Of a stretch of 64,000 nt of DNA, positions 4,701 to 52,050 are shown in pieces. Each line of letters opens with the position of its first letter. Positions within the stretch are counted from its first letter, which is position 1. Under the pieces are notes generated by a model. It worked only from the letters and a program-made list of their open reading frames with translations. It made no database searches and was not told the DNA's origin. Location: contig CM097885.1 of NCBI GenBank assembly GCA_044892525.1, forward strand, positions 67,580,001 to 67,644,000. Reading direction: 5' to 3'. The position numbers were made by a program, and so were the translations under genes. The stretch comes from Schmidtea polychroa. Lineage: Eukaryota.

Positions 4701-6671
4701 TTAGACAGTATATTTCTTTACATGTACATTTTTTTTCATTGATCCTATCTGTGATCCAAGAACGCTGAAAAACATATTATAATCTAATTGCATCAATAAT
4801 TGCCTCAAATGAGGATTCGAGGAGATGCTGCCCTCGACATTTGTGAATATGTTGTAGAGGGTTGTCGACAGGGAATGGAATCGATTTTGTAACATAATCA
4901 ATTTCGAGTTGATACTGGCCGTCTGATTGGGATCGAGCCTCGAATTCAGCTCAATTAGATCGCTATATTCCACGCAGACATGGCAAATGTCCGACAGGCC
5001 CCGGGAAATGACAGAATTGAACAGAAACAAATGAGCTTTGAGAGTCGACACGAGACTCTCGTGAGTCGATTTCAGCACTTCAATGTCGCGATTTTCCAGG
5101 ACTCTCTTCTTGAACAGCGACATTTGCGACTCGATGACATCGACCTGGATGTAATACTGCAAGTGGTTGATGAAAAAGCTCATGTGATTCTTCAGAGTCC
5201 ACTGGATAGTGTGAGAAAGCCCGCGTATCGATTTTATGTTGAACAGCGCGTTCAGTCGCATCTGGGTGCGCTTAATCATTATGAGGAACTGAAACAAGTC
5301 GTTGTAGCTCTTCATAAGGTCTGCAGTAAACACGATATGGAACGGCCAACGGACACTGTATGTCAATTCGATATCTTCCCATTTCAAGGTGGTTTCGGTG
5401 GAGTTCTTGTTTTGAATGAATCGGAACTTGTTGAGAGTCTTCTCGTCGTCAAGGAACACAGCTCTAGCCGCCTCTATGAATTCCTTATTGATTGTTGCTT
5501 CCGTAGAGTTACTAATCGAGGTGTTTATCACGTTTTTCTCCAAATTCGTGATGAAAACAATGAACAGTTCTCCTCGGCCAAGCAATAAATACTCTTTTAT
5601 CTCTTTAAAATATTCCTCTAGAAATTCGTTCTCTTTCACCAATAAACTCCACATTCGGCTCAGGATATATTTCTCGACATTCTCCACAACTTCTTGTACT
5701 TTCAACAAATTAAACCCTTTGATGAATTTCAAATCATTTAATTGATTGGAGAATTTTTCCTCTAGTTCACTTTTCAGTTTATTACCTTCGTTAGAATCTG
5801 TCCAGTCGTTAATTAAAATACTTTCCCCGTTTTTATCAAAGAAATGAACAGATTCACCTATAAAAAGTATTTTTTTCACTAAAGAAATCGGAATAAAACA
5901 AGGGATATTTTTCTCATTGATTTTAAAACCATTAACTCTTTTTCGAACATTCGAACGATAAACTAAAGAAGAAACTTGAAGTTTGTTCATTTTATCTATT
6001 AAAATTGGTTGTTCATCATATTTAGAAATTTCCTCTTCACCGTTGGCTTTATCTTGTTCGTCAGCTTTTTCATATACAATAGCAGCGATAAAAAATTCTT
6101 CGTAAGGATCGAAAAGTGCTCCTTGTAAAATCCACGACGATATCTGTCGATAAAGTGTATAGTTGCAACGCTCAAGTATTTTATTTAAAATTTCTTTGAT
6201 GTGAGAGTTTCCAATCGGAGTATTATTGAAAATAGCATCTAAAATCTGACAACCTCGGCGATTATTTTCTTTAACACTATCTAATATTTTCCACAATGTA
6301 GGAAACAATATAAAATAATTATATAATTTGGCTTTTATATAAGAGACAGATAAGAAAGGATCTGTAAGCAGTTCCTGTTGAATAAAAATTAATTCATTTC
6401 TATATTCTTCAAGAGCCATTGACACACCATAAGCCAAAGATATCTTATATAATCCACTGGTTTCTTTATTAATCAGAGGACTGGAGAATGAATTTATAAA
6501 TTTCTGCATTCTTTTATAATATGTTCCTAAAATGCAAACTTCATTCATGAGACTTTGCTCAGAAGGGACAACAAATGGAATTTCATTAAAAATTTTAATA
6601 ATTCCATTATTATCTTCAACAAATATATTACCAGTGACTCCATTAAGTGCTGTGAGAAATTCTTGAAGCAT
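4701..6671 (-). CDS. TUBGCP4: Gamma-tubulin complex component 4 (GCP4), intronless, 656 aa
   Basis: N-terminus MLQEFLTALNGVTGNIF, motifs LYRQISSWILQGALFDPYEEFFI, KKILFIGESV, KEYLLLGRGELF, WPFHIVFT, YNDLFQFL and HLQYYIQVDVIESQ (GRIP1/GRIP2). The length fits GCP4 rather than GCP2/3. Confidence 0.93.
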   Translation of the reverse strand: MLQEFLTALNGVTGNIFVEDNNGIIKIFNEIPFVVPSEQSLMNEVCILGTYYKRMQKFINSFSSPLINKETSGLYKISLAYGVSMALEEYRNELIFIQQELLTDPFLSVSYIKAKLYNYFILFPTLWKILDSVKENNRRGCQILDAIFNNTPIGNSHIKEILNKILERCNYTLYRQISSWILQGALFDPYEEFFIAAIVYEKADEQDKANGEEEISKYDEQPILIDKMNKLQVSSLVYRSNVRKRVNGFKINEKNIPCFIPISLVKKILFIGESVHFFDKNGESILINDWTDSNEGNKLKSELEEKFSNQLNDLKFIKGFNLLKVQEVVENVEKYILSRMWSLLVKENEFLEEYFKEIKEYLLLGRGELFIVFITNLEKNVINTSISNSTEATINKEFIEAARAVFLDDEKTLNKFRFIQNKNSTETTLKWEDIELTYSVRWPFHIVFTADLMKSYNDLFQFLIMIKRTQMRLNALFNIKSIRGLSHTIQWTLKNHMSFFINHLQYYIQVDVIESQMSLFKKRVLENRDIEVLKSTHESLVSTLKAHLFLFNSVISRGLSDICHVCVEYSDLIELNSRLDPNQTASINSKLIMLQNRFHSLSTTLYNIFTNVEGSISSNPHLRQLLMQLDYNMFFSVLGSQIGSMKKNVHVKKYTV

Positions 6672-14791: not shown

Positions 14792-17700
14792 ATGGAACTA
14801 AATGTAAACTTTTTTCATTTCTTTAGTCATTATCAAAATATTATTTTATCTTTTATGAGCTATTGGATGATATTTATTGGTTTTGTTACATTTTGCTTTC
14901 TACTTAAATACAATGCACCATACGGTCGGTATTCAAATTATTTATTCGATTTTCACATACCTGCGAAATTAGCATGGCCTTTAATGACTATTTCCCCGGT
15001 TTTGACATTTGTTGTTTTCCTATTTGTAAAAGATTATTTTGATGTGAGAATCTTCAATTATTTTTACTTGTTATATTTTATTCATTATTTTAATAGGTTA
15101 TAATTAATTTTTGGTAATGTTAAATATTACAATTCTTATTCTAGATCGCTGATTTATCCAAATCTGATTAAAAATAGTCAACCAATGCCATTAGTACCAT
15201 TTGCACTAGCTTTTGTTTTTCATATATACAACAGTTGTTTGCAGCTTATTTCAACATTTAATAGTCAACCGTCTTTTGGATTTGTCAATATAATTGGTAA
15301 GATAAATGTTATTTTTAATTTCAGTCTAAAATATTAAGTAAAAAAATATTTTGCATTTATAAATTTTATGATGTTAGACTTGTAGTAATATTAACGTACT
15401 TATGCTTATGATCCCTTACTATACTATATTAATACATAAATGATTATATAAAATTAATTTGCAAATTAAGTAAGGGTAATCTAAATTTCCTTTCTACATT
15501 CTTTTGATGAACAAAAACTGCATTGTCCGCTTCGGTGTATTTTTCGTAAATGTACCTCAGTATCGCAAATACAACCTACAAATGTTATTTCGTCTTCAGT
15601 TTATGTTCGCAGAAATAGTTGTTTGTATGTTAAAGTACTGATTCCCAAAGTGGTCCACGTCGACAATTATCATAACCCACTACAAGCATTTATTTTTTGA
15701 TTAATTATTTTATGTAACAGATACTAAATTTTAATTTGGTTCGTTTTAATTTTAATTTAATTAATAAATGTGTAAAACTTCTTGTTTTTTTAAAGTTTTT
15801 CACACTTCACTTAATTGGAGTAAGAATTTAAATCTTTCAAAGTGAGTAGCACCATACCAACTGCCAAAAATACATTTGAAGTTGATGAATTTGCAAAAAT
15901 CAATATCAGGTAAGCAGTGGTCTACCAAAAACCGAAAAACAGGCCAAGGGGTCCACGAGACAAAACAGTTTGGGAACCTCCGTGTTAAATTTTCACTATT
16001 CATATATTATATTGGTCAAAGACAAAAAAAGGTAAAAGACAAATAAGACTAACCGACGGATTATTGGCTCTTTAAATAAACGCTCATGCTTGTCATGTTT
16101 CGACCAGTGTACCCATAACAACAGTCATGTTGGTACTGCACACTGTCCTTGAAAAATAGGTGGCAGGCGACCTGCTCCCTTACACCTCCCCCACCCATAG
16201 GTTTCTGGTGGGTTCTCAACGGTCGTTAAAATGTCTTACGACCAAATAAAAAAAAAATCACTTTCTCATCAAGGTGGTAATATTTGACATATTACTCAGT
16301 TCTATTAATTACCCCGGTCGCTCCCGTGTCATTTAACTTAATCACTTTAAAATGAAAATATCAAGACAGCAAATTATATTGATGCGACCAAAATATTCAT
16401 TCACAAACACCAAAATTTGATCACCTATATTTAAATCGAGAGTCTTCACCAGCCATTTTGTTCGATATCAGTTAAATTTCAACTGTCAATATTACCATTA
16501 AGACTTTGTGTATGTAATATCTGTATAGATGTATGTTTTAGAAACCCCTTCCAAGGTCATAGTGGTTGTAAATATTGCTGGGGCACCACTCAGTTGACCT
16601 TCCTTGATTTACGCTTAGCTCTAAGGGATGATTGCCCATTTCATAAAATCACTATTCCCTTGTCGACTTCGAGTAGGACCCCACATAATTTATCCTACAA
16701 CATGGTACCCGTGGATTGCTCCACGTTGGAACTGTACCACGCTGGCGAGACGTCAGTAAGCAGGTGAGCTCCTGCCTTAGAACTACTCCTTACTGAGGCC
16801 TCGACTTCTCCCCATGCGACTGCCGATAGAAGGACTTACGTCTACGTACGCTGTCAATCTTCCTTATGGCACGACGAATGCACATATATCCCGACATATT
16901 AAACTAATAAGCTTTCGTTTTTACACAGTTGTTAGCTATTTACCATAAAAACCCAATCACCAAAACTACAATTTTATTACAATATTATAACGTTGGACTA
17001 TACACATTTAAACAGATCACTATCGTCAGGGAGAGGATCGATGAGAAGATAGGATAGTCGAAGCATGTCAGACAATGATCGGAAAAGAGTAGTTCACTAC
17101 AGCTGTTCATTTCTCCCATTCGGTATCTTTTAGTAGTTCGTCCAGGTCAAAAAATTCACTGGCATTTTCTTCCCACGTTACCCCCGTGGCTGCGATGATC
17201 CGCGCTGGGACTCCGGTGGTTAAGTCAATCGAGAGGTGGGAGTTGGTGGTAGTGATCGGATCTCCCGCTGGAGGGTTACTAGATACTACCGAGGCTCGTT
17301 CACGCTGCCTCCTCTTACGCTCGGTCCTCGTGGGTTGCCGGCGCTTAGGTTTCGCGATTGGCCGATTCCCCTGCGGCTGAGTCGATGCAGGTGGGACATT
17401 GGGCTGCGCTTTACTAGTCCCTATGACGATAACATCCTGACAACCTGGTGAGAGTTCAGCTTCCACACACTCAGGACAGGACCTCTTGAATGGGGACGAC
17501 GTCTTCGCCGAGGTGTCGTGGTGCACCGGGAACAGATTATCGGCTTCCTGGATGGGGATTTGCACAATTTTCTTCGTCGTTGTCGCGTGCACATACACCT
17601 TGTGTAGTGCCTCGGATTGCTCTTTAATCAAGCTTCGTTGGGAGCGGCTCTCGGAGATTAGAGCGTCCCGGCAATGTTCGCTACGATGAAGCTTTTTCTG

Positions 17701-20700
17701 CATCTCCTTCATTTGCACTGGGCTGAACCATGTGCCTTCCAGCTCGTCGATCTTCCGCTTGTATCGACCGATCTGGGCTTGTAGATCTTTTATCACTGCA
17801 TTTTTGTCTGCGCAGGAGAAGCAGGGTCGTAGTACTGACTTATTCTGTGATAACATGTCGGATGGCTGTAACGAAGAAAATTAAGATAATGATACGTATA
17901 ATCGTCAGTTAGCTATAAGGGTCTATTTGGCGTGAGGTACCTGGCAAGAGGAAGGGCAAGATGAGTTAATGAGATCAATTCTCTCCCTGTATAGTCGATC
18001 ATCACAAGTTTATCTGTCCTTTACCCAATTTTACTCCTTGGATTTCTCCTTTTCCGTGCACCAAGGTAATTCACCAAAAAGTTATCTTACGGCTGTTTAG
18101 AAACTATCTCTATATTTTTACTTTAGTTTAATTTATTATTCCCCTTAATTGATTTAACTTTGTTTATTAATTATTCTATTTTACCCCCTACTTGAGTTAA
18201 AATTTTGAACGAAACACACTTAGTAAAAAGTCTATGCTCTTACCGCATTTATCGGTCCAAGTTCATTTCGAAAAAAAATTTCCATCATCCCCCCTCCGTT
18301 GGCATCTCACAATCATCACCTAAATATGCCTTTTGTACGATCATCAGAAGTCTATCATACTGTAATGATATTCGTAGATACAGGAAAATTTATTAACTTA
18401 TTAAGTTTTTAGTATAATCCATAGTTTGAGTAGGATCTAAGAAATCTAAATTCAATCTTCTCATGGGAAGGAGAAATTTCACGCTAGAAAAACTGGCAAA
18501 TTTAACGATGTGGCTAAGGTTGTGATTATCGTTTACTATACTTGGTTGGACTATAACAATCCTCTACATCGGTTTAGGAAAAGGTTCTATCATTTGGTTA
18601 CGAATATCTCTCGTTATTATCAAAAGGACATCACACTGATATATTCATTTATAATCTAAGTTACGTAATTTAGGAAAATTAATCTCAATGAATGCACTTT
18701 AAAAGGGGTCTCATATTTAGCGGAATAATTGTAGAGCAGATGGCTTATCTCTTTACTGTCATATCTCGGTAATCAATACTTGTGAATGACCCACTTGGGC
18801 CCTACTACATGCGAGTCATTATCTGATGCACATGCTTATTGCTGTTCGTTTCTGCTCACTACTTATCGGATATAATGCCGTGTGAATTGAAGTTCCTCGT
18901 GTTCATCAACTATCTCTTTCATGGGCTCTTATCTATTCGTGAGTTAGTTAACGAGCCTCTTATCAATGCATGCACGTAAAGCAAAAAAAATATTGGATTC
19001 ATCCTACCGATTTGGTAATTTCTCATCAACCCGTTTCGTAGATCTGATCAGTATGAATTGAATGTTACCTATCTGCACGTTTTTACGTTAGAAAAAAAGT
19101 TCGCGACGCTGTTACGACCGGTTAGTTCACACAACACTCTGAAACGGGATTCTTGTCTAGCTTTTCCTACTGTTGGAAATTATTACACTTCCTGCGGTAG
19201 ATGTACCAGATGCGAGTATGCCTCAAGGATGAAATGAAAGATGACTACGAAAAATCTAAATCAACGATGGAACTGTTCACGTGGCGGAAAGCTAAGTTTA
19301 CAATCGTGATTTAACTAAAATGTATTATGATGTCTTAATTTGTTATTGAAATTTTCCTTCACATCTACCGTGATAATATTTCTAATTGAAAGTAATAGTG
19401 CTATCGATCGAAGTAGTTATTTTCCGAGTGACTAGCGGTTAACTCTCGCACAAATTCGGTCTCGAACCAAGAATACAGCCAGTGGTTACGTTGAAGGTTC
19501 CGATTTTTAACGCTCACAACCTTTTTCCAGAGCTACTCAACGTCTGTTGACCTTGCAAAAACAGATAAAGTGTCCACCTCAATCACTGTGTATCGCATAG
19601 CTATTCTACTATAAGCCTGAAATTAATCTTTCGATCAAATTCCTGTTACTCAAATCAGATTTTTGGTCGCCCTCAGCGATTGAACCCGTGAAGAAACCTT
19701 CACCTGACGGCCCATTCTCGCTGCGTGATTGAAACGATGTACGTCCAACGATAGAGCTCCCGAAGGCACCTCTTGTCATGAACGCCATCCATCTCAACGC
19801 CACGTTTCTCAATAAATTTCATATTCATAAAATAGTCATACACATAAATCATGAACTCCTACAATAAATCGTTTATTTATGAATGATTATTACATCGAAA
19901 TAACTATTTAAATAGAAATAAATAAGTAAATAAATAAATAAATTCCTTACTGGGAAATCAAATGAAGGAATAAAACTTCTTAAGTTAAGAATTTAATCAT
20001 TAAATAATTGCTCATAACACTTAATAATCTAAAGAAGAAAATCGCCTTACTGTAGTTAATGAATCGAAGTTTGTGAGCTGAGTCGAAAATTATACGCTAT
20101 CTCTCTGCAACGTTGATTTAGTAGAGTACGATACTGTTGTTCCCTCGAATTATGATTTCCTGTTGAATGCGTTGAGTAGGTTTCGTTGATTCTTGAGTCC
20201 TGATTGTCTATATCTGTAGTAATTTTGAAATTAACAGTGAATGTAATGGGTCTTGTGTCTGTATATATAGTATTTTTGCGTGTATGCGGACCAATCAGAT
20301 TTGAGTACCGCTTATTTTAATTATTTAATTTATTTTTTTCTGTTTTATGATTATTTTCCCTTATTTTCTTTGTTTTTATTATGTTTTTCTATTTATTTCC
20401 TTAACTTCCTCATTATTTATTAAATTTCCTTCCTTTTGTTGGTTGATCTATTTTCCTATTTCTATTTTCTTATTTTCTTATTTTGTTTTAATTCTTATTT
20501 TTCTAATTCTTATTTTTCTTATTTCTTGTTCCGTTTTATTCTTAAGTTATTTATTTTGTTTTTATTTTCTTTAGTATCTTATTTGTCTTACCTTCTAAGT
20601 TTAAATTTCCTAAGTTTACATTTTCGACGTTTAAATTTTCGACGTTCGACGTTTAAATTTTCGACTCAGCCCAACAATATAAATATAATACATGTCCACT

Positions 20701-23700
20701 TTTACATTTTGGAAAAGTATAACTTAGTTAACACTGCATTATAAGAGATGAACTGTAGATGATCGAGAATAACGACCAAAATGAAAGATCAAAACAAATT
20801 AAATTGTTTGTTCGTGATTCGTTCAAATCTTTCAGTTAGAGCCTTACTCACTCGAACTGCGAATCATTGAGAAGAATAAGAGAAGAAAATTCTGATAATC
20901 TTAATAATGCAATGCCGGATTCAGAACCGATGATCAAATCACAACAAAGTGAAGGACAAATCTGAATATGAATTAAGACTGATGAGACTAATATTTTCGG
21001 CCTCTCGAAGTAAATGATCGATGTCGAACTTCGGTAAATTTTCCTCTATCCAGGGAGTACCCACGACTGGAATGACATGAAAAGATTGAGGTTTAGTTGC
21101 GAGAAATTCTGCCGTGGCTTTCTCGTGGTTATCCACCATCACTGCTCCCACTTCTGCTTGCTTACCCCCTTTACGTTTGGACCGTTCGGCGCGGGTCAGC
21201 GATTTCCCTTTTGGCTTAGTGGTTGGTACCACGAGGACAGGAGAATTTCTAGGCACAGTCGATTTGATTGGTTCGTGAATTGTCTTGATATAGATTACTT
21301 CATGAAATGACGAGGGGGTTGAGATTTCTCCATGATTCAGGCAAATGGTTTGTTTCGGCGGGCTCGGACCCTCAGGGTGATGATGTTCTGGGAAGATTTT
21401 GGTCCGGTCAGCCACTGGTACTTCAAGAATCCGCTTTCTCAATTCAGATTCGGAGTATTGGGGGGGCGCTTGTGATGAGTAGGTACAAGTGTGCTCCATG
21501 ACCCATCGTTAAACAAAGACATGACTCATAACAAAGAACATGACGTATACCCGCCCATCCAATAAGTAATAAATGACGTCATCAATGACTCATCACACAT
21601 GACTCACACTTATAACTAATCAGTGGTGACTCATCAAGGGTAACTCATTTCAATGTTACATTCAAATTTTTAAAGGATCAAATTATGTCAACCTTTATGG
21701 ATATCATTCGAAAGGTCTTGATGAGCACTATTCAATGGTCATATCCTCGAAGGTTTAAGGTGTATCCTTAACCTTCAACATTTTAAAAACTATATAATAT
21801 AGGTGTCAATCGAAAGGTAATTCAATATGTAGTTCAATAGTCTAAACTACCGCAACGTAATATTATTGTCGATACACGTGTTAACATATTGGAAGTAATA
21901 ATTACAAAAACAATGCAATTTGAATGTAATATTAACAAAAACCCTTCAATTCATGTGCAAACTCAAACAATTACTAATAATAATAATACATAGAAAAATT
22001 ATAAAAAATTTTTCGCATAATAATAATAATAATATAACAGATTAATACATTTATTAAAAAAATCCATGTTATTCATTATCATCATTTAAAAACCTCCATT
22101 AAGTATTTGGTAATTACTAACAGCAAACGTACATACTAATATGTACTCGTAGACATTTAGTGATTTTTCTTTAAATTGTTATTATAAATTAGTTAAATAG
22201 TGAAGCTATATCACTATTATCAGAAACATAAACTTTAAAAAACAAACAGCAACGACAAAAGAAAGCACATGTAGTGGGCGTATACTGATCAAAAACTGCG
22301 GGAGATACGCGAGTGACGTGTTTTGAAATGTTATTATAGTTAATTGGACAATAATCTCCGCTGTGTAGCAATTTAAAGCAGAGTCATTGATAAAATATGT
22401 TTTGGTATCAAGCAAAATCGTAATCAAATTATATAATAGTCGCTATTTATTGTTTTCATCTATATCTGTAACTATATACAATTTTATCTTCTGGAAAAGT
22501 TATTATACACACCAAACCTTAACATATTTTTGTGTTTATAATTAACAACTGAGATATTTTTATATTTCAATAATAAATTTCTGTCACTGGGCTGAAAAAT
22601 ACAAGTTCATAGTGACAAAATGATAGAGTAATATTTTGGATGTTGGTGTAACCTGGAACCTAGATCTAGACTAGAGGTTTTTAATCTTTTTTAGTAGCGT
22701 AGTACTATTTTATATACTTCGCAAATGCGGAGCCTCAGTATTAAAAATGAGTTTAAAATTACAGATATTCACACTATTTTTTTTATACACAGATACACTG
22801 AATTTCAAAAAAAAAATTATTCGTGTTTATTCATTTATTCTTTCATAAACGTTAGAAGCACCAAGGGTTTTTTCCATGACTATTCGATTAAGATGTTTTT
22901 TAAGAAATTCAAAATGGTTGACAGGAGGGAGAATATTTTTTACTATTCGATAAAATCTTTCATTGCTTTGAGTATGAATATGAGACTGTAGATCAGGGAT
23001 GCACAAAGTGCGGCCCGCGGGCCACATGCGGCCCTTTTGAATAATTTGTGCGGCCCTCATGTATATTTATTTAATATATTTATTTAAATATTTATATAAA
23101 AAATTTCCAGATTTAATATAAATTACATAAATTTAATAAAAATTGCACAGATTTAATAAAAACTCTAACTACAAAGTATTTGTTTTGTATATTTGTTTGT
23201 ACCAAGCTAGAATTCAAAAAATATTCGCAAAATAAATATTTATTATTGTGAAGTCAGATGGTTAAGCCGCGGAAAAACATTACAAAGATTTTCTGATTTG
23301 TTGGAAGAAATTGAAGTGTTCCTAAATGAAAAGCAAAAGCCTTTTCAAGAGCTTTCTTATGACAGGTGGCTTTGCGATTTTGCATTTCTTGTGGATATAA
23401 CCACGCATCTAAATATTCTCAATTTAAAGTTGCAGGGTAAAAATCAATTTATTTCAGAAATGGCAAACCACATGGAATCATTTGAAAACAAATTAACTTT
23501 ATTCCAAAAAAATCTAACGGATAAAATTTTGCATCATTTTCCTACATGTCAAAAATATTTTCCGCGACACTCCGCGGACTATGATTTTTACATAAGTAAA
23601 ATTCAGTTACTGAAAAATGTTTTTGAATCAAGATTTGCTGATTTCAAAAAATGAAAACTGATTTCCAGCTATTTGCTGATCTGTTTTCAGTTAATATCGA

Positions 23701-26700
23701 TGAAGTTAATCAAGATATCCAATTAGAACTCATCGATTTGCAGTCATCAGATCAGCTTCGTAATAAATTTAACGAAAGCGATCTTCAAAATTTCTATAAA
23801 TGTTTACAAAAAGTGTCATATACTAATTTAATTCAAAAAGTAGCATACATTGCATCTTTATTTGGTTCAACATACTGCTGGGGTGTTACTCGTTTGACTA
23901 CCAGTAATCCCACTTCAGTCTAGGAGATGAGTGCCCATTATGATTATACTTGCCGTCACTTTGTCAACCCTGAGCAGAACCCCACATAACCTGCTATCCA
24001 ACATGGTACCCGTGAATTGCTTCACGTTGGTACTGCACCATGCCGGCGGGACGCCAGTAAGCAGGTGAGCCCCTACTTAGGACTACTCCTTACTGAGGTC
24101 TCGACTTCCCACTCTCGACTGCCGATAGAAGGACTTACGTCTTAACCAAACTCTGACTTCCTCTTTCTACCTTTGGTTGGATCACGGCTGACTAATATTT
24201 CTAGAATCTCGAGAGCTTTCCACCCTTATCATTATTGTCATACTAAATCCATCACACATGAAACAATGAAAACTCAAAATTATTTATTATTATTGTTATC
24301 AGACATGTACAACATTTATGGGTTATATATACCCGAAAAACATCAAGACGAGAAAAATAATGAAGAAAACTCGATGATTTTTTAGTTCGACTGGTTTGCC
24401 ATACGACAGAGTTATCCTACGAGAGCCTTTTCATTTCTCCCACTCTGTAGCTGCTAACAACTCCTCTAAATCGAAAAACTCGGAGGCATTCTCCTCCCAA
24501 GTCACTCCAGCAGCAGAAATAATTCGTCCGGAGATCCCTGACGTTGGATCCGTTGTCACCGAAGGAACACTGGCTTCACTTATGAGCTCCGTTGGTTGTA
24601 CGTGCTGCTTGGCGGTTATTCGCTCACGCTGTTTCTTTTTGCGTTCGGCTCGGGACAACTGCCGACGCTTTGGCTTTGATGTCGATGGGTTAGATTGAGG
24701 TACAGTGGACACAGAAGCTATCGCAGGAGGCGCTTGACTTGTTCCCACATAGATGATGTCGGGTTGTTTTGGCGAGAGCTGTGTCTCTACACACCCTCTA
24801 CACGACTTCTTAGGAGGAGGCGACGAGGTTGAGGAAGTGTCATGGTGTGCCGGAAAGAGGTTGTCGGCTTCATTGATTGGAATTTTTACAATCTTCCTCG
24901 TGGTTGCTGCCTGTAGATAAACTTTGTGCAGTGCTTCGGACTGCTCCTTTATCAGGCTTCTTTGGGAACGGCTTTCGGAGATCAAAGCGTCCCGACAATG
25001 TTCGCTACGATAGAGCTTTTTCTGGGCCTCTTTCATCTGAGCGGGACTGAACCAGGTCCCCTCTAATTCGTCTATTCTCTTCTTGTACCGCCCAATCTGG
25101 GTCTGTAGATCCTTGATAATGGCGTTCTTATCCGAGCAGGAGAAGCAAGGACGCAACGCGGGCTTGGCAGTTGGTATCATGATCACTATAAAGGTAAGAT
25201 GGAGATGTAAAATATACAAGATTCAAACTAAAGTGAACATAACTGACTGGCTACTCGTGGATACTTGACAGACAAAAAAGGGAAGAATCTATTTTACATT
25301 CCGGTTCTACTGCATAACTTATTTACAGAAAAATTTTATTTAATTAGATGTCATTGACTTGACGAGTGCAATTGATTCTAATTCCCAAAATTCTTTAAAT
25401 AAGGGTATGTGATTTCTACTGAATTCCCTTTTCACTCAATCGTTACACTATATCGGCGCTGATTACTTTCTCAAAAACTCTCCCCCCTTTTATATTCTAC
25501 TAGTCTAATTTTATACTTGAGGGTTTGTAATGGTTAATAATATTATAGTTATGATACTGATAATGTAATATAATAACGCTTTAGTAATAATGATATTATG
25601 ATATTCAATCAGAATTTTGTAGATTATTTATTTTAATTTATCGAAAAAACATACATTTCGCTAAAATAACTAGTTTAAAATCGTCGCTATCCTTTAACAT
25701 ATTTAATTCGTGGTTTACTGGCAATTGCACTTTAATGATTTTCGCGTCTCTACTGATTTTACTGTTAATTTTGTTATCTGCAATAACTACTCTTTACCTG
25801 AGAGAACGTCTGAAAATTTTCAACATATGTGTAATGATCTTACGTCAGCTGTTATCCTAACACGCTTACTTTACATTATCTCGCAGAGACGGAAAATTTC
25901 ATCGGGCACGACATATGTCAAAATTCGCTACTGCTGATGATGACTAATTGATTGCATTATCTACCTCATGTGGGTACTATTACTCGTGGCTACTATGCAT
26001 GCCTATCTAGTACTCTGTGTGCCTGTCATACGGACTCTCGTGTGCTGTTACTGCTACCTTATCTCATTTGCTTGGTATGTGCCATTTTCACAGAGATTTT
26101 ATCGTTCCTGATGTCGCATGATTTTTACTGAACAGTGGTTTACCGGAATTATAATTTATGCTACTGTCAGGTCTCATCGTGGAATTTTTATCATCACCAA
26201 CTCGTGTGAACCATCACCATCGTTTGGAACTTTATTGGATATCTCAATGATTGTTGAAGGAACAATTCTACAAAATGCTGAGGTTTTATTACTCCCTACG
26301 CTACCCTAAACTCAGATTTTCTTATTCGGATGGAATATCGTCTCAATGAAATCTACTCTTAGCCTTTCACAATTTTTCCCTCAGACACTATACATTCGGA
26401 AATTTGGGTAGACATGGTGATGAGCTGGCTTTCTTTGTGAAAAATAAATGTTATCAGATGGATTTTTGTGGTATTTTATATTTTTATAATTTTTTGAATT
26501 ACTTAATTTTTTTGGAATTTAATAATATTTTGGAGTTTTAATATAATATACATTCTGAACGGACTTATAGAAATTGAGTGTACGACAACAAAATTTTATG
26601 CTAAACTATTGTTACGGAGTTCGGACAAATAGAATTTGCAATACTTAATTTGGTAGAACTATGTTTTTCAGATGATGTACACTATGAGGCGACACTAGAT

Positions 26701-29700
26701 TTTGACGAATTTACTGAATAGTTGCATGGATTTCTTTCGGCTAACCTAGATGTTAAAAAGTTCACGAAGACGACTAAATGAAGTTATAGGGTGACGCCCT
26801 CAATCACTATGTGAATTCTCAAAAATACTTTCGTTCAGTTATACATCTATCCTGTCGATCACTGTCTGGCTATCATTTTTCTAGAATACTCTGTTTATAC
26901 AATTTAGTCGCATCTTCAGCAATTGGACCCGTGAAGAAGCCTTCACATTTCGGCCCAATCTAGCTGCGTGATTGAAATACTCCATGTCCACCGGCTGAGC
27001 TCCCGAAGGCACCTCACACCCTGACATGGAGTATCTCAACTCCACGTTACTCAACAAATAAAAATTCATAAAATATTTAATGCAATCAATAAAACATAGA
27101 AATCTAGATAAAAATTATTTATTAATTCTATGATACTCAGACATGTAAATTTTATTAAACATTAAAAATTACTAAATGTGGAATCAAATGAAGAGTTGTT
27201 TAATAAAGAATTTACTATAATTCAGTCTTCATAATTACTTTAATGTAAACTAAAATTCTAAACAAAAGTTCGGCTTACCAATATACTAGATGCTGAGCTG
27301 AGTCAAAAATTCAAATCGAATGTTCCTGAAAATTAGGCTGTTCGCTGTAAATCTGGATAGTTCTCAAATGTTGTCTCGGTTCCTCGTAGTTTTCTGTAAG
27401 TAGTTGCTGTCGTCGGTAAAGTGTTTGAGTTAACTGTGATCTATTGAATGTTGGAATTAACGGTATTTCTAATAAATTCGCTTACCTATTGAATGTTGAA
27501 ATTAACGGTAAGTTTATGATTTTTATGTTTGCTTATATAGTAAATTCTGGTGTATGCGGACCAATCAGAATTGAGTACCGCTTATTTTCTTAATTTAATT
27601 TATTTTTTCCTGTTTTCTGGTTATTTTTCCTTCCTTTCTTATTTTTATTATATTTTTTATTTATTTCTTTAATTGACTCATTATTTGTTGCATTTTCCAG
27701 TATTTTGTTCGTCATTCTATTGTCTTATTTTAATTTTTCTTATTTTTATTTTGTTTTAATTCTTATTTTCTAATTATTGTTTCTCTTATTTCTTATTCTA
27801 TTTATTCCTGAATTTATTTATTTTATTTTTAATTTCCTTTAATATCTTACTGTCTCAATGTCTATATTTTTGAAAGTTAAGTTTTTTGACTCAGCCCAAC
27901 AATACGTATGCGAACAAACGTTCTCTGTTATGAACATGAACAAGTCGAAGCAATGTAACCGCCTTTCAAATACTAAATTACATTCAATTCTACGTTTGGG
28001 AACAACAAACTTGACACCAAATATTTTAAAAATTGTTAATAAAAAACAATGTCATATTGCTCAAAAAAAAAATTAAATTAATTATTTCAACTAAATTAAA
28101 ATGCATTTTTTGTATATAGAAACCGGGTTATAATTTAAAATTTTACAGATTAGGTGTTTTTTTCTAAATGTGGCCTTCATAGAATGTATTATTAGAAAAT
28201 GTGGCACCCATACTGAAAAGTCTGTGCATCCCTGCTGTAGATAATCTACAAAGGCAACTGAATGATTTATGGTATGATATATATAGCCATAATCACTAAG
28301 TCCTGTATAACCTCATCAGTTGTCAGTCATGATGGTAGCTCCAGTTAAGACATTTGCTTAGATGAATTCTAAACACGTCGCACAACTTTTATTACGTACA
28401 AACATCCACCTAACTTGTTTTGTGCGCCTGCAGATCACACCAATTATCCAATATCTTTTCCCGGCTAGGATCCTAACTATTCCATCTCGTCTTCACACCA
28501 CGTGAGTTTCATCAATTTCAGCAATCTCACTTGGTCCACCAATTTTCCGAGCGGTTCAGTTACATAAACTGTATCCATACATAAGAGAAACTTGTTAATA
28601 AAGTTATTCAAGCTCTTTTCACCGTGCTGTACTTACAATAATAACTGTGAAATTGGCAATAGCATAGCCCTTAAATACATGATTCGTAGGCATTTGCTTA
28701 ATGGCATGTAATTTCCTTCAAAAATACTATTCTTAAAAATAGATTCTGATGAGCGGCAACTTCTACTAGAGCGCCATCTCCCATTTATTCCGTGTAGAAT
28801 ATTACCATATCATAAGCTCCTGTTTCTTCCACAAACATCACAGTAATTTACACGTCATATCAGCCCCTCTTCTAGTAAAAATTGGAGTGAATCTCTTCAT
28901 TCATTGTAAGCTCTGTCAACTCAAAATATTCATTGTAAAGGTTTGAAAAAATGAGTAAAATAACCAACTTTTATATGTTTTAATGTTTTTATTTTTTGCC
29001 ACCCCCAAAACCCGTGTCATACCAAAAAATTTAATAAAGAAAGAACACTTTAATGAGAGCAATGAGTTTGCTTTAAGACTTAATACTAAATGTTAGAAAC
29101 CAATTTTGCTAAGCTTAAATTTCTGTCACTGGGCTGAAAAATACAACAAGTTCATAGTCACAAAATGATAGAGTAATATTTTGGATGTTGGTGTAACCTG
29201 GAACCTAGATCTAGACTAGAGGTTTTTAATCTTTTTTAGTAGCGTAGTAAAATTATAAAATTCTAGAAATTATTTTGAGTTGTTACAAAAAAAATTTCAG
29301 AAATTGTAAAATTTTAAAGAACCATTTGGAACTTGTCGAGAAACCCTTGAGCTCCGTAGAGCACACATTGAAAACCAGTTATATTTGTTTTATTTTTAAC
29401 AATATTGGTAAATAGTTGAATGAAAAATTAATATGAAGGAAAAATGATCTATTATTGTATATTTCTAGTTGTACTGTCGTGTAATGACCATTTTCAATTA
29501 AAATTAATTAATCTCTACATTTTATTCGGTTATTTATAATGTTTCGCTAATCCTGACATTTAAATAAAATCGATTTCTTGCAATCAGAAATTGTTTTGAA
29601 TAAAGAGTTAAAAGGCGCCATAGTTCGATTTATACTAGAATTTGGTACGACTTTAGTATTAAACGTCAAACAATCGGATTTGATTCAATGCCACAATTTC

Positions 29701-32700: not shown

Positions 32701-35700
32701 NNNNNNNNNNNNNNNNNNNNNNNNNNNNAAAAAATTTTATAATATTTTTCAGAATCTTAATATTTTTCAGATCTGGCAGCGTTTTTTATAATTAGTTGAG
32801 CATTTTCTGTTTTGAGAAATTCAATAAATTCTTTACAGGACATTTTAAAATTTTCTTTTACCATTAATTCTGCTTCAAGGTTTTGCAACAACAATTTATT
32901 TCGTTCCTTGCACCAAGCGGTTGTCATCAGGCTAAATATCCTTTCGGAAGTTGTATTGGTTTGAGGAATAGAAAAAATAATGCATACTATTTTATATAAA
33001 TTTGCTGAGTTTTCATGAACTTTAAAGAATTTTATTCATTTTTCATCAGGTAATAATGTGTTCAGTTTTTCTCTTTCTGTATTTATAAAATAATTTAATT
33101 TATGAATTTCTTCGAATAAAATATCTTTATCAATATTGCAAATATTAAATTTTTCAATTATTACTTCTATTTTATTATATTGAATTGATTCTTTTAAACT
33201 TAGTGGTTTTAAGATTTCGAATTTATTATTTTCGAAATTAAACCATTTTTGCAAATAAGTTATTGCCACATTGAAAAATGAATTTGCTTCTATTTCAAAT
33301 CTTTTTATGGCAGAATCATTATCACATTTTTGTAATATTGTTCTTGTGATTGAGCCGTAAAATTGTTGCTCTTTTCTGTTGATTAACGATTGTCTGACTT
33401 CATCCATTATATCATATATATCTATTATAAGAACGTTGTTGGTTTGTAACTTTTTAAAGCGGGCTGAAATATTGAAAATGTGTTAATAATAAATCCTAGA
33501 TAAGCTATAGAAAGCTCATCTTCAAAAAATAATCGTATTCCAACAGATATTGAATTTTGAGACAAAAAATATGATTTAATTGGTTCAAAATTTTTCAATA
33601 ACCTTTCAACAGCAGGTAAAAGGCTTAGCCATCGAGTTGGAACGTGGCGTAAGATTTCCGGCCATTCTACTTAGGCCCATTTAAAAAAATCTTTTAATGT
33701 AGTGGTTTTTTTGTTGACGAGCTAAACTCGTTATAAATTTTTATGACTATTGAATCAATATCAATTTTCAGTTGGGTTGCGGCTTTTTTCGCAGTGTTGT
33801 GCAGAATATGACTATTACATCCAATCGGAATAATTTTAGAATTAGCTTTTTTTAATTCCGTAAAAACACTCTGGTTTTTTACGAAATTCACCGCTGCATT
33901 ATCCGCACAAAGAGATGATAAATTTTTAATATTTAAACTGTTTCATTCCAATTTATTCTTTATAGAATCTGCTATGTTAACTGAACGTTCACTATCTAGT
34001 GAATAAAAAGACAGCAGAACATTTTGTATACCTTTTTCTTTGGTAAAATATCGCAAGACTATAGGAAATGTTTTAACATTTCCTTTATTCGAAGCATCGG
34101 TACTCACAGAAAATGGAATATCACCTTTCAACTGTTCTAAAATTCTTCTTTTCGATTCCGGGGCCAAAACATTACAAACAATTTTGGATATTTTGGTTCT
34201 TCCACAGCTGTACTTTCTTGCTATATTTGAATCAGAAAGCAAACCTGAAAATATTGAACCCGCACAATCACTAGCTAAAAAGCTGCGTGAATGCATGATG
34301 GTATGATAGCAAAAAGCCACTTCTGCTGATGTAACAAGTTCTTCTTCTTTGCTGCTTTTTTTACAAAATAACGTAGTCAATTTTTTTGAATTTGCTGATG
34401 CAGCTATGTTGGATCGATGACCAACCGTTTTAAAGTGTCTTTTAATATCATTTTCACCACCATGTGATATAGAAATTTTTAAATTATTACACACTGTACA
34501 AGTAATGTGATGATCACCACATTGTCGAATCCAGTCATATGACTTCGTCCATTTCGGATTAAATTTTACTGTATACTTCACTTTTTTTATATTTCCTCTG
34601 TTTTCGTCAGAATCAATGCATTCCAAATCCGAATCAGACATTTTTAGGCAATAATTAGTACGTCTTATTAAAAAACGAAAACCATTACAAAATTCAATAT
34701 TAATATATTAAGTTTTTGAGATTTATTTTAATTTTATTCAATATAAATTATATTTAGCTTCCTATCCTAATTGTATGATTGTATCACTTAATTTATTTAA
34801 TATTTTGTTCCAAACGACCATTTTAATTAATTTAGATTTTTAGAATACACAAACTATAAGTAAATTTTGACATCAGAACAATACTTATAGGCAAAACACA
34901 ATGCGCAAAATGTCAAAAAAAGTTCATTATTTTCACCCAATTGGCATTACTTCAAAATGTTAAGTGATGACAACTGCTGAAAAAACTTAATTTACAAATC
35001 GGGAGTTTTTGGAATGTATATCGGGAGTCGGGAAATATACTTTCATAACGGGAGACTCCCGACGAAATCGGGAGGTCTGGCAACCCTGCTCCAAGCGTGT
35101 CTTTAACTGATCCAGAAATAACACTTGACAACAGAAATTTTTATTGATAATCACAAATAATTTCCACCTTACACTAACAATCAATTCAACACTTTGCTCA
35201 GTCACTACAATGCTTATTTCAACACCCAGTAAGGAATAGCACGCGTGTACAACACCGGATTGAAAAATCACTAACTACTGATTGGTTTATCGACTGGGAC
35301 TTTAATTTGGTTGTTTTCTTTGACCTTCTTCGACAACTTTATTCAAATATTCCAATAACTTATTTTCGTTTGTTTCTCAGCTAATTCTTTTCTGAAAATC
35401 TCCAACAATTATTCTTTAACAAATCGTTTTCCAATAAATATTCGTCTCAATGACTCCCACAATTTCTCCGTTAGTTTTATCTCCTTTTCCCGTAGACTCT
35501 TGCCTCGTCTTCCGTTCGTTTTCGTCTAAATTTTCGTCTGTTATTTTGTTTGAATTTTTGTCCATTCCACGGCCAACAATTCCTTTTTATATAGCTCGTT
35601 TCATTTGTGGCACTAGAGATAATCTAATGTTTTCCACTTATCTTTCTCCCGCATTTCCCGACTGTTCCCATTTTATCTGTGACAGATGTTGAAATATGCT

Positions 35701-40538: not shown

Positions 40539-40978
40539 TTAACCATCAAGCGGTTTTAACTTCGATGATTCCGGTTCGAATCCTTGTTCGGCCAGCCGCA
40601 GTCGTTTTAATCGCTCGCGACAATCTCGACCTAGCCGCTTTCGTTTGGCCTTAGGCTTGGCTGGGTGGATTTCGTTCAGTTCCGTAGTCATTGGTCGGAT
40701 GGCTGCCGTGACGTGTTCGTCTATTGTCTTCTGATTCAGCCGCGTTTCCATGGCCGGCATCTGTAATTTCAGGGCGCGTATTTTGATTTGTCTTGAGCGC
40801 TCTGGAGCTGCAACTGCTCGATCTGCTTTAAATGTTTGTGCACTACTTCGGGACGAAACCAAGTTTGCTCTATGTTCCGGCAGCGTTCTTTAAACTTGTT
40901 GATGTTGGATTGAAGTCACTCGACCTGTTGCTGAGCCTGCACTCTATCTTTTCGGAGACCTTCGAATAGCTTGTACAC
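40539..40978 (-). pseudogene. Disrupted, distant member of the orphan ORF family
   Basis: LQSNINKFKERCRNIEQTWFRP ~ LQAQIGRYKRKIDELEGTWFSP. Basic patch KPKAKRKRLGRDCRERLKR. One in-frame stop and a frameshift. AG acceptor at about 40978. Confidence 0.55.
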
Positions 40979-41329: not shown

Positions 41330-41466
41330 TGTGTACCTATGACAACGAGTCATGTTGGTGCTGTACACCGAGGTTGGAAGCCGTGAGCAGGTGAGCTCTA
41401 TTACTAAAACTACTCCCCACAGCGTTCGCGGTTCGAGTTCTGGAATGCCATAGGAGGACTTACATC
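41330..41466 (-). ncRNA. Diverged copy of motif A (A4)
   Basis: CAAC..GTTGGT.CTGTAC, GAGCAGGTGAGCT, ACTACTCC and GGACTTAC, all collinear with A1-A3. Confidence 0.6.
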
Positions 41467-41658
41467 ATCCAATAGCCTGCCTCAGGTCCAAGTGAGGTAT
41501 TTCATTCTTTTCGACTAAGTTGTACTGATGTCTTTTCCATTATTGATTCAATAATCAACTCATAACGAGACAACGTTAAACATTTAATTACATTACATTT
41601 GATTTCGAGCTACATGAATCAACTAAAGACATGAACAAAAATAGACTACGTAATAAAT

Positions 41659-43270: not shown

Positions 43271-43680
43271 ANNNNNNNNNNNNNNNNNNNNNNNNNNNNN
43301 NNNNNNNNNNNNNNNNNNNNNNNNNNNNNNNNNNNNNNNNNNNNNNNNNNNNNNNNNNNNNNNNNNNNNNNNNNNNNNNNNNNNNNNNNNNNNNNNNNNN
43401 NNNNNNNNNNNTCAATGATCATGAGATAATTAACTCTAATATAGAAAACTGTATACCCACCGACCCCTGCCTTGAAGTATCTATTATTCTTCCGTCTAGA
43501 TATCGACCCTCTCCTCTCGATGATACACCATCATCCTTCCATCTTATCTGCGGTCAGAGACCTGCATCCTGTTGTTGCGAGTACGCGACTCGGATGACCC
43601 CTTTCTAGTGCAGCTTTAGTCTAGAGGATGAACGCCCACCTCGATTTCGCCCGTCATTTATATGGTCATCGCCGAGCGGG

Positions 43681-43846
43681 ACCCGTACATAACCTACACT
43701 CCAACATAGCACCCGTGAATTGCTTCACGTTGGAACTGTGCCATGCCGGCGAGACGCCAGTAAGCAGGTGAGCCAGCTCATTCGGACTACTCCTTACTGA
43801 GGCCTCGACTTTCCAACCCTGACTGCCGATAGAAGGACTTACGTCT
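43681..43846 (-). ncRNA. Conserved structured motif A (A3)
   Basis: GCAA-loop hairpin at 43714-43729, with the same stems as A1/A2. Confidence 0.7.
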
Positions 43847-44139
43847 ACTCATTCCGTCGCCCCATCGCAATGTTTCTAGCTGAGTTTGTCAACTGACTAA
43901 TGCTCCTCATAATTTTGTGACTCTCAATACCATTTACCAATTTCAACTCAACTGTCCTAAGATGAACACAAAAAAAAACGTATGCAGACAAAAATGGTTT
44001 ATTATTAAGATTATCACACAAATATATCTAACACCTATACAATACAATTCACGACAACAGGAAAAGAGACAAAGGTAAAAATGTTATCAGACAATGTTCG
44101 GGTCATTTCAGAGAACGAAAACCTTTTACGGAGAAGTTC

Positions 44140-44889
44140 TCATTTCTCCCACTCCGAGTCTGCCAATAGATCTTCCAAATCGAAAAATTCAGAGGCGTTT
44201 TCCTCCCAGGTTACACCAGCGGCGGAGATGATTCGCCCTGAGATCACTGATGCTAGATCGATTGCTGCAGGAGGGTTGATGACTTTGATTGGATGATTCG
44301 GCGATTTCTGGTTCTGTTTGGCGGTTACGCGTTCCCGCTGTTTCCTTTTGCGTTCGGCTCTCGATAATTGCCGACGCTTTGGCTTCGATGCCGTTTGATT
44401 GGTCGGGGGTGCTGCAGAGGTAGATGCTATCGCAGGTAGCACTTTACTGGTTCCGGTAAAGATGATTTCTGGTTCTTTAGGTGAGAGCTCGGTCTCTACG
44501 CACCCATGGCAGGACTTTCCGACTGGAGAAGAAGACCCGCCAGAAATGTCATGGTGCGCCGGGAAAAGATTTCCGGCTTCATTAAGTGGGATCTTCGCGA
44601 TCTTCCTTGTGGTTGCTGCCTGGACGTATAATTTGTGCAGCGCCTCCGACTGCTCTTTTATTAGGCTCCTCTGCGCCCGACTCTCGGAAATTAACGCGTC
44701 TCTACAGTGCTCGCTTCGGTGCAGCTTCTTCTGAGCCTCCTTCATCTGGGTGGGACTAAACCATGTCCCCTCTAACTCATCTATTTTTCTTTTGTGCTTT
44801 CCGATTTGGGCCTGGAGCTCTTTGATAATTGAATTCTTGTCGGAACAAGAAAAACAAGGTCGAAGAACGGTCTTGGGATTTGGCAGCAT
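44140..44889 (-). CDS. Orphan 249-aa protein, copy 3
   Basis: Intact ORF. Acceptor TTTCCTTCTTAG (AG at 44899-44900) 9 nt before the ATG. AATAAA at about 43998. Confidence 0.85.
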   Translation of the reverse strand: MLPNPKTVLRPCFSCSDKNSIIKELQAQIGKHKRKIDELEGTWFSPTQMKEAQKKLHRSEHCRDALISESRAQRSLIKEQSEALHKLYVQAATTRKIAKIPLNEAGNLFPAHHDISGGSSSPVGKSCHGCVETELSPKEPEIIFTGTSKVLPAIASTSAAPPTNQTASKPKRRQLSRAERKRKQRERVTAKQNQKSPNHPIKVINPPAAIDLASVISGRIISAAGVTWEENASEFFDLEDLLADSEWEK

Positions 44890-46662: not shown

Positions 46663-46920
46663 CCTCAATCACTGCGCGAATACATAATAATTCTCGGATT
46701 CATTTATTCATATATCTCTGTTCTCGGTCACTGTATGACTATCAATTTTCTATCAAAATTTGCCTATAGATTTTAGTCGCACCTTCAGCGACGGACCCGT
46801 GAGGAAGCCCCCACATTACGGCCCGAATCAGCTGCGTGATTGAAATACCCTATGTCCACCGGTGGAGCTCCCGAAGGCACCTCACACCATGACATAGAGT
46901 ATCTCAACGCCACGTTTCTC
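46663..46920 (-). ncRNA. Conserved structured motif B (B3)
   Basis: Stem ATACCCTATGTC (46845-46856) / GACATAGAGTAT (46891-46902) with a C-G to T-A compensatory change relative to B2. cUUCGg loop. Confidence 0.72.
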
Positions 46921-47153
46921 GCAAAATTGAATAGTCTCCAGTAATAATTCATAAAAATAATTCGTAAAAGATCAATAATTCCTAACGAGCAAGTCATTTA
47001 TTATTAAGCAAATTATTAATTTAAATAGAGCATTCGAAAATCAAACGAAAAGAAAAACCATTCTTTAAATTAAAATTATTATTAGACTATACGCATTACT
47101 TAAAATTTCAAAATAAGAAATCACAAATCCTTACCGAATGATTGATATAAGTA

Positions 47154-47762
47154 TGGGCTGAGTCGAAAAAGGGTACTGTGTCGAATCAGTTAATGCTCGA
47201 ATATCGTCTAGTTCTGTAAAAATCTCTTGAATCTTGGAATTGTCCTCGTGAGTTATCGTGCGTTAGTTGCTGGATTTCTGTTCTGTCGTAGAATAGATTT
47301 ACCTATTGAGGTGGTTTGATTAACAGTAGTTGTTATTTAAATTTCACTTACCTATTGAGGTGGTTTGATTAACAGTAATTGTTATGTTTTTAATGCCTGC
47401 TTATATATTAATTTTTTGTTTACGCGGACCAATTAGAATTGAGTACCGCTTAATTTTATTAATTTAATTTATTTTCCTTGTTTTTGAGTTATTTCTTCTT
47501 ACTTTCTTTATTAAAATTATGTTTTTATTTATTTTCCTTAATTTTCTTATTATTTACTATATTTTACGTTGTTTTCTGTCATTCTATTGTCCTATTTTAA
47601 TTTTTCTCATCTTTATATTTTTTGTTTTAATTCTTATTTTCTAATTATTGTTTTTCTTATGTTTTATTCTATTTTATTTGTCAATTTATTTGTTTTTATT
47701 TTTTATTTTATTTTAGTTAAGCTTGCCCTAATTTCCCAACTACCCTTCGACTCAGCCCAACA
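47154..47762 (-). promoter_or_regulatory. IR-bounded promoter module of unit 3
   Basis: TGGGCTGAGTCGAA / TTCGACTCAGCCCA inverted repeats. CGGACCAATTAGA at about 47425-47437. TATATAAG on - at about 47400-47407. Consensus donor CAATAG|GTAAGT at about 47346-47357. Confidence 0.7.
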
Positions 47763-48634: not shown

Positions 48635-48690
48635 GATACTATTATACATTCATTAGGTTTTATTTACAATTGGTTTTAGTGACCCTTAAT

Positions 48691-51965: not shown

Positions 51966-52050
51966 TCTATAATTATATGTACATATAGTTCTTGTCGATA
52001 CAGGTTCGATATTTTATTTACAATTATTTACATTTTAAGCTAGGTTGGGT

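Follow-up and report, generated by a model that had tools for sequence, protein, structure and literature searches.

The 64,000-nucleotide (nt) stretch of Schmidtea polychroa DNA analysed here (GenBank assembly GCA_044892525.1, contig CM097885.1, positions 67,580,001 to 67,644,000; hereafter the window) carries three copies of a 249-amino-acid (aa) open reading frame (ORF), each lying inside a long terminal repeat (LTR) of a giant, env-bearing Gypsy element which, judged by its architecture, is of the Burro type. The ORF is a real gene under strong purifying selection, and the LTR appears to be laid out as a whole transcription unit, with promoter, two splice donors, intron, acceptor, ORF, AATAAA polyadenylation [poly(A)] signal and a structured RNA that we call motif A. 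Its product is quite possibly, as the best and still tentative explanation, a Rev/Rex-type regulator acting on a stem-loop in the element's own intron and shifting output from a short spliced messenger RNA (mRNA) to unspliced genomic RNA. What the sequence shows is that the ORF is LTR-borne and under selection and that signals for promoter, splicing, poly(A) addition and paired RNA are conserved. The element class was already known; the LTR-internal gene, predicted to be spliced and to encode a regulator, and a cap-proximal mini-intron that may be restored at strand transfer appear to be new. The features concerned, in positions of the window, are as follows.

17107–17856, minus strand: ORF of 249 aa, the window copy, inside a solo LTR.
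24431–25180, minus strand: ORF of 249 aa, inside the second solo LTR.
44140–44889, minus strand: ORF of 249 aa, inside the 3′ LTR of a 5′-truncated element.
16576–20676, minus strand: solo LTR of 4101 nt, TG...CA, with the window ORF; 4-bp target-site duplication ATAT; recognized by homology to paired LTRs.
23876–27901, minus strand: second solo LTR, of another subfamily; target duplication ATAC; 45-nt mini-intron at 27485–27441.
43573–47762, minus strand: 3′ LTR of the 5′-truncated element, with ORF 44140–44889; 49-nt mini-intron at 47351–47303.
47763–58953, minus strand: broken internal body of the same element, with accessory ORFs, a RING-TRAF ORF (50814–51965), an ankyrin ORF and reverse transcriptase–RNase H–integrase (56242–58953; Pfam).
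20262–20296, minus strand: promoter block, with a reversed CCAAT box (20295–20291) and a TATA box (20269–20262).
20214–20238, minus strand: 25-nt unit at the predicted transcription start (20238).
17866–20050, minus strand: predicted 2.2-kb intron, with a GTAAG donor at 20050 and a pyrimidine tract and AG acceptor (17867–17866).
19660–19805, minus strand: motif B, a two-arm stem-loop and candidate response element inside the predicted intron; z −3.4.
16973–16978, minus strand: AATAAA poly(A) signal, 3′ of the ORF.
16668–16843, minus strand: motif A, a structured RNA near the 3′ end of the LTR that begins with a donor-like GTAAG at 16839; z −3.7.
ORF protein, modules: CxxC; helical/coiled-coil region, residues 15–94; His-His and CxxC; variable linker; Arg-rich helix, residues 169–190; acidic hydrophobic tail.

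The identity of the element is taken from copies examined elsewhere in the genome, in which the ORF is present in each member of LTR pairs of 4150–4190 nt (99.7–100% identity, flanked by 4-bp target duplications). These pairs enclose a 4617-aa polyprotein in which Pfam recognizes Gag, CCHC, a viral fusion/Env domain, protease (PR), reverse transcriptase (RT), RNase H (RH), integrase (IN) and ankyrin, followed by a RING-TRAF ORF and then three more ORFs. The Env/fusion domain (PF24664, E 4e-70) lies in frame between Gag and protease, the order PR-RT-RH-IN is that of Ty3/Gypsy LTR retrotransposons, full-length elements measure 30.2–30.6 kb, and the primer-binding site after the 5′ LTR is complementary to the 3′ end of host tRNA-Pro(TGG). 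The broken body in the window is 90–96% identical in DNA to the full-length copies. A preliminary description of this DNA had guessed at a retroviral context, a guess that the position of the ORF in the LTR of an env-bearing Gypsy element bears out; its family of three copies, on the other hand, proved far too small. Searches of the species' own genome scored at least 150 matches per query from ∼7,000 first-look candidates (candidates not being a copy number), the LTR promoter pattern has 973 genome matches as against 6 for a control, and with a young-subfamily query 142 of the best 150 matches had no stops and an identity of at least 93%, most of them forming pairs ∼26 kb apart on one strand. 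The element carrying the ORF has many hundreds of copies in the genome. Close relatives of the window LTR are solitary, 11 of 11 being without internal sequence within 10 kb, and a 4-bp duplication was found in five of the six with both ends recognized. In two full-length elements the polyproteins are 98% identical (dS 0.085) and the LTR ORFs only 66% identical, with saturated synonymous sites, which indicates that LTR modules are swapped as whole units between elements whose bodies are nearly identical.

As the preliminary description had stated, the three 249-aa copies of the window are intact; their differences fall mainly at third codon positions. The ORF at 17107–17856 shares 65% and 64% protein identity with the other two, differences by codon position among the three are 72/49/157, 72/45/155 and 46/34/129, the ORF frame is the only one free of stops in all three copies, and pS is 0.73–0.90 (saturated or nearly so) vs. 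a pN of 0.15–0.21. The purifying selection that it had suspected holds well beyond the window. From 94 loci, 78 had an open frame of at least 235 aa, leaving 69 distinct ORFs (a set of open frames only, and therefore biased against stops), among which pairwise dN/dS is well below 1, falling from 0.26 at dS <0.05 to 0.07 at dS >1.6, with 1295 of the 2346 pairs saturated. Constraint is uneven along the protein, with a dN/dS of 0.03 for residues 10–90, 0.07 in the basic and tail regions and 0.29–0.33 in the linkers. Within three subfamilies, variants common to several copies have a pN/pS of 0.26, 0.19 and 0.16, and singleton variants 0.66, 0.32 and 0.35; the singletons of the window copy's own subfamily (0.66, near neutrality) include five stops. 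By this comparison selection acted during replication of the element, and copies once inserted decay. A host (orphan) gene family was accordingly rejected as an identity for the ORF, the copies sitting inside LTRs and the singleton variants of the window copy's subfamily approaching neutrality; the term ‘orphan’ used in the preliminary description is apt only in that no named family matches.

The LTR itself reads as a gene. A CCAAT–TATA block is common to seven aligned LTRs at 330–440 nt from the 5′ end, with ∼2.4 kb between it and the ATG downstream, and transcription of the window LTR probably starts ∼440 nt into it, at 20238. Because this conserved block and predicted start stand upstream of the ORF in the same LTR, the ORF would belong to R/U5 rather than U3. 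The coding sequence of HIV Nef and of MMTV Sag precedes the promoter, in U3, and it is the 3′ LTR copy that is read. Our ORF resembles them in being LTR-internal and therefore duplicated at both ends of the provirus, but differs in lying downstream of the promoter with its own acceptor and poly(A) signal, and a U3-encoded nef/sag-like gene was dropped as a candidate once the CCAAT–TATA block had been found upstream of the ORF. The second donor is present in all 28 LTRs in which the conserved motif preceding it was recognized, 67 of 69 copies have a pyrimidine-rich YAG acceptor 5–9 nt ahead of the ATG (background 4%), and 68 of 69 have AATAAA 100–160 nt past the ORF stop (background 9%). The AG at 17867–17866 that had been flagged earlier is thus a conserved acceptor-like site, and the neighbouring DNA, described before as diverged, has not simply diverged: the flanks hold the conserved promoter, splice and RNA-structure blocks of one LTR. 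An acceptor serving trans-splicing is less needed, since conserved cis donors were found. For the LTR region 43573–47300 the look-up named no RNA data set that contains it. Contigs of four runs (three guessed to be RNA, one of unknown kind) gave patchy, mostly diverged cover of a young LTR and leader with no GT–AG joint, a result uninformative either way, and genome searches found no natural copies with exon 1 or the second-donor region joined directly to the ORF, from which we draw no inference. One natural LTR (L194, G000:C1:164470000-164474800) has a deletion that puts motif B beside the ORF acceptor; it is not a precise intron loss.

Two structured RNAs adjoin the ORF, as the preliminary description had proposed, and both show compensatory changes. 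In motif B, 14 of 46 pairs have such changes and 97% of cells pair, vs. 35–45% when the structure is slid; in motif A the figures are 15 of 48 pairs and 98% paired. For both, the covariation score was reached by none of 500 shuffles, slid controls pair at 32–45%, and G–U pairs are tolerated on the sense strand; the window copies each fold better than all 200 of their shuffles. Motif A sits after AATAAA and before the tRNA-Pro primer site, and motif B lies ∼430–580 nt downstream of the predicted start, where it is the first conserved hairpin. A search of the LTR and leader, motifs A and B included, gave no Rfam match.

The protein features PCFSC, TWFSP, Arg-rich stretch and acidic tail listed in the preliminary description are present, as are C127/C130, and the Cys/His pairs are conserved in the close family. 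Structure models (pLDDT 52 and 58) place helices at residues 15–42 and 46–94, a basic helix at 177–190 and short helices in the tail, the rest being disordered. The basic helix has 11 K/R in 22 residues and is kept in all eight distant ORFs, and the tail has 9 D/E in 24 residues and is predicted helical. Pfam has no family above cut-off for the protein, a homologue search with a four-sequence alignment gave no match, no Atlas neighbour was found at 0.9 (best score 0.85), and fold searches of viral and PDB libraries gave none either, a weak test at such pLDDT values. A profile search of 1.84 billion representatives returned 12 proteins (E 3e-9 to 8e-4) that share the helical core and, in most cases, the Arg-rich stretch that follows. 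Nine of the 12 carry an unrelated host-type domain, the 10 that were looked up are singletons, and exons of this genome match the host part of one at 74% and 92%; because each is a singleton with a different partner, the most plausible reading of these fusions is that LTR exons were wrongly joined into the gene models of a related animal. Gene predictors that join the LTR exon to unrelated host genes in this way would pollute planarian annotations. One distant relative matches Pfam REV on its Arg-rich stretch at 19.1 bits, under the 22-bit cut-off, which we treat as convergence.

The arrangement of these parts is what suggests a switch. Complex retroviruses solve the export of unspliced RNA with Rev, Rex and Rem, small Arg-rich proteins made from spliced mRNA (PMC12789967). 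Here, the predicted ORF mRNA lacks motifs A and B, and genomic RNA must keep both, as well as retaining the 2.2-kb intron and passing the AATAAA, which is the logic of Rev and its response element (RRE). In our proposal, transcription would start ∼440 nt into the window LTR, and by default the acceptor just ahead of the ATG would be used for splicing, with polyadenylation following the ORF; since this unit would fall within one LTR, solo LTRs could also express the ORF. The protein would oligomerize via its helical region (a step suggested by the helical model) and bind motif B (or A) via its Arg-rich helix, and binding would restrain both splicing of the 2.2-kb intron and premature polyadenylation, thereby licensing export of the ∼26–30-kb genomic RNA. 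From that RNA the cap-proximal mini-intron would be spliced, to be restored at minus-strand transfer with the second unit overwritten by exon 1. The likeness to HIV Rev/RRE, HTLV Rex/RexRE and MMTV Rem (PMC12789967) lies in a small protein with an Arg-rich helix, predicted to bind RNA, a predicted spliced mRNA and a structured RNA in the intron that is removed; the differences are that our protein has no homology to them above threshold and no clear leucine-rich export signal, and that its gene is wholly inside the LTR, downstream of the promoter. The close and the distant family each pair the ORF with an intronic hairpin, and the distant family pairs it with its own mini-intron as well.

A nearer precedent is the Gypsy/Ty3 element Cer1 of Caenorhabditis elegans, in which CERV, a protein made from spliced mRNA, is required for export of unspliced genomic RNA (PMC10309623). 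The two cases share a Gypsy element and a protein from a spliced mRNA (predicted here), and CERV has a Cys-rich loop. CERV differs in being a large three-domain protein, which the parts of that account available to us do not place in an LTR (PMC10309623), and Pfam, profile and fold searches detected no similarity between the two, which were not compared directly.

Several observations weigh against a Rev/Rex-type regulator acting on motif B. Pfam, profile and fold searches matched the protein to none of Rev, Rex, Rem and CERV, by homology or by fold. Forward export-signal spacings occur in at most one protein per class within the last 45 aa of the 67 close-family proteins; a reverse-type spacing occurs in 41 of the 67, on our reading upstream of the tail. 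The tail itself has a hydrophobic-acidic-x-hydrophobic-hydrophobic pattern in 63 of 67 close and eight of eight distant proteins, and so has more the look of a helix from an activation domain, of which that pattern is typical, than of an export signal. Motif B was undetectable in 14 stretches around distant relatives, four of which have a different compensatory hairpin of their own at the same intronic position; since motif A follows 34 of 48 distant matches, the protein's target, if any, may be motif A. Moreover, subfamilies with 65%-identical proteins have nearly the same motif B, so that protein–RNA co-variation is not demonstrated, and related sequences can out-covary shuffles without structure, a known caveat of the tool. 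Of the resemblance to Rev and Tat drawn in the preliminary description, then, the predicted layout follows Rev/RRE logic, homology and a TAR-like position find no support, and the tail fits an export signal less well than an activation helix.

The main rival, because of the character of the tail, is a Tat/Tas-like activator or anti-terminator, in which the basic helix would anchor the protein on nascent RNA or on LTR DNA, and a co-activator brought in by the tail would increase initiation or help transcription to pass the internal poly(A) site. In foamy virus Tas and HIV Tat, which are early regulators, basic and acidic modules are combined, and our protein, a predicted regulator, has both as well. 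The widespread acidic, helical tail and the conserved Cys/His pairs would suit such an activator, and a 26–30-kb transcript must indeed read past the conserved AATAAA in the 5′ LTR. We nevertheless consider it rather unlikely: we identified no internal promoter and, given the predicted start, no TAR-like hairpin close to the cap, homology to Tas or Tat is lacking, and fold searches with our weak models gave no DNA-binding fold. Tat works via TAR in R and Tas via LTR elements (PMC12789967), and motif B, at its distance from the predicted start, is unlike cap-proximal TAR. An intron layout that removes motif B from the ORF mRNA is better explained by an export or splicing switch.

Improbable, in our view, is a host-directed accessory protein (anti-silencing or anti-defence) whose basic stretch serves only nuclear or nucleolar localization, with motifs A and B independently serving packaging, dimerization or reverse transcription. 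Elements of this kind carry many host-interaction domains such as TRAF and ankyrin (PMC6431247), Burro elements are de-repressed on knock-down of a PIWI protein (PMC8532177), and the wholesale swapping of LTR modules on a near-identical body would fit such a role; but the protein is strongly constrained, shows no rapid diversification outside its linkers and always travels with motif A and an intronic hairpin. Very unlikely is a particle-associated RNA chaperone or scaffold that aids copying of a ∼3.7-kb strong-stop DNA or packaging of the giant RNA. A promoter near the 5′ end of the LTR does imply ∼3.7 kb from cap to primer site, and the protein is basic with a long helical region, but Gag already has CCHC knuckles, and a separate (predicted) spliced mRNA and an acidic tail fit a nuclear regulator better.

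The more surprising part of the LTR is a mini-intron next to the cap. In a typical LTR, a unit of ∼25 nt ending in AG occurs twice, with a GTAAG-type donor after the first copy; donor and second copy together delimit a GT–AG mini-intron of 44–54 nt whose last ∼25 nt copy exon 1. After removal of a duplicate and of an unmatched locus, 58 LTRs were compared, of which 46 have donor and second unit, including 23 of the 29 chosen by promoter alone, and the remaining 12 have a single unit. The two units are 98% identical within an LTR vs. 55% between LTRs (30 distinct units), and the left edge of the repeat falls 28–33 nt after the TATA start in 40 of the 46. The window LTR at 16576–20676 is without exactly the mini-intron/second-unit stretch, and five of 14 stretches around distant relatives have the same device built of unrelated unit sequences. 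Among 56 distinct LTRs, 22 of 27 discordant pairs switch identity between U3 and downstream sequence at +12 to +92, several of them at +71 to +78, the end of the second unit. A G before the second unit, in 5/39 vs. 0/39, weakly suggests derivation from a cap.

This pattern suggests that the mini-intron is spliced and then restored at strand transfer. Genomic RNA would start at the first unit and lose the mini-intron by splicing, so that minus-strand DNA would end in unit sequence; at the 3′ end, where the copy is unspliced, this DNA would anneal to the second unit and be extended across the intron and on into U3, and each cycle would thus rebuild the mini-intron and overwrite the second unit with exon 1. 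Annealing to the first unit instead would lose the mini-intron. Such a model would account for the concerted evolution of the units, a left edge at the expected start and occasional exact loss, and it predicts crossovers at the mini-intron. Here too there is contrary evidence, in that 11 of the 22 clustered change points involve LTRs without a second unit and the pairs are not independent. Duplication and homogenization of the unit by polymerase slippage or gene conversion, with no part for splicing and strand transfer, is nonetheless an improbable substitute. Deletion between direct repeats would give the same product as precise intron loss, so that the single-unit LTRs cannot discriminate; but slippage or conversion does not explain why the repeat runs from ∼30 nt past TATA precisely to AG|GT, nor why the spacer is a 44–54-nt GT–AG stretch in every family, the distant ones with unrelated units included. 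The composite picture, in which the LTR is a complete intron-containing gene, the mini-intron is rebuilt in each round of reverse transcription, an independently evolved Rev-like protein encoded in R/U5 acts on an intronic stem-loop and solo LTRs could supply that protein in trans, is a more doubtful proposition than the regulator by itself, and we put it forward as possible.

Set beside Burro/GYPSM1 (PMC6431247), our element has the same size of ∼30 kb, multi-kb LTRs, a huge polyprotein (Gag-CCHC-in-frame Env-PR-RT-RH-IN-ankyrin), and TRAF/MATH and accessory ORFs. Burro1 has a polyprotein of 4873 aa with TRAF inside it, and another species has an upstream TRAF ORF (PMC6431247); unlike Burro1, the polyprotein here is 4617 aa and TRAF is a separate downstream ORF. 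The LTR gene, LTR introns and structured RNAs described here go unmentioned in the portions of the Burro text that we could draw on (PMC6431247). A literature search confined mostly to listings and the openings of abstracts gave no account of an LTR-internal spliced gene in Burro or of an intron restored at strand transfer; the figures and supplements of Grohme 2018, the Repbase entry and Fig. 2A of PMC6431247 may already show the LTR ORF. If our reading is right, an invertebrate Gypsy element has independently reached the regulation of complex retroviruses through a layout absent from the literature searched, in which the regulator gene sits in the LTR itself, past the promoter, and solo LTRs would be potential protein-coding genes, hundreds of which could supply protein in trans. 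The mini-intron, if it behaves as proposed, would escape the rule that reverse transcription erases introns and would be an internal mark of the start site and the strand-transfer point. Intronless DNA is a hallmark by which reverse-transcribed invaders are recognized by human HUSH, which is not shown for planarians (PMC8770142); a self-restoring intron would sidestep such recognition.

Some further features of the element may be recorded. By eye, no purine run was seen in the 30–35 nt before the 3′ LTR, and given this lack of an obvious polypurine tract, plus-strand priming may be unusual. An inverted copy of the LTR 5′ end lies at ∼20089–20077 (minus strand), just before the second donor, in all subfamilies. 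Host tRNA-Pro occurs in a large tandem array with 475-nt spacing from position 130,901,009 of G000:C1, the pattern having 1577 genome matches. In two elements (L036–L040 and L145–L148) the four ORFs after pol mostly have AATAAA, often as TGTAAATAAA, ∼10–70 nt before the ATG, and two of the four have AG just before it; they may form an operon-like array or serve as alternative poly(A) and splice units. Another element (L141–L144), internally deleted and flanked by near-identical LTRs, contains a large insertion of unrelated sequence in which there are several ORFs.

The rest of the window holds older relatives of the LTR and other sequences.

20939–21499, minus strand: ORF without its 5′ part, from an older and distant LTR family; profile match from position 87 on, coiled coil missing.
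16100–16244, minus strand: weak motif A (nhmmer E 2e-4), beyond the inserted solo LTR.
40539–40978, minus strand: broken remnant of another distant relative; only 40772–40915 matches the profile (E 4e-4).
41333–41467, minus strand: one more motif A, diverged (E 4e-9), the mark of a further old LTR remnant.

The two distant relatives named in the preliminary description, 20939–21499 and 40539–40978, are thus related to the ORF, but neither is intact. By position, the window solo LTR is inserted into an older LTR of the distant family, to which the weak motif A at 16100–16244 probably belongs. Just upstream of the truncated relative, at 21500–21660, is a cluster of TGACTCA, TGACGTCA, CCAAT and GC-box motifs, the first of which we take to be AP-1-like and the second CRE-like. 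The missing 5′ part of the truncated Burro-type element is absent from the next 30 kb, and beside its truncation point lies a broken non-LTR retrotransposon (59790–62647, plus strand; RT domain 60122–61321). Broken ORFs at 33036–34641 (minus strand), with no Pfam match above cut-off, presumably derive from a DNA-transposon transposase, which they resemble. An intron-free 656-aa ORF at 4701–6671 (minus strand) encodes a gamma-tubulin complex component (Pfam GCP N- and C-terminal domains) and is an ordinary host gene.

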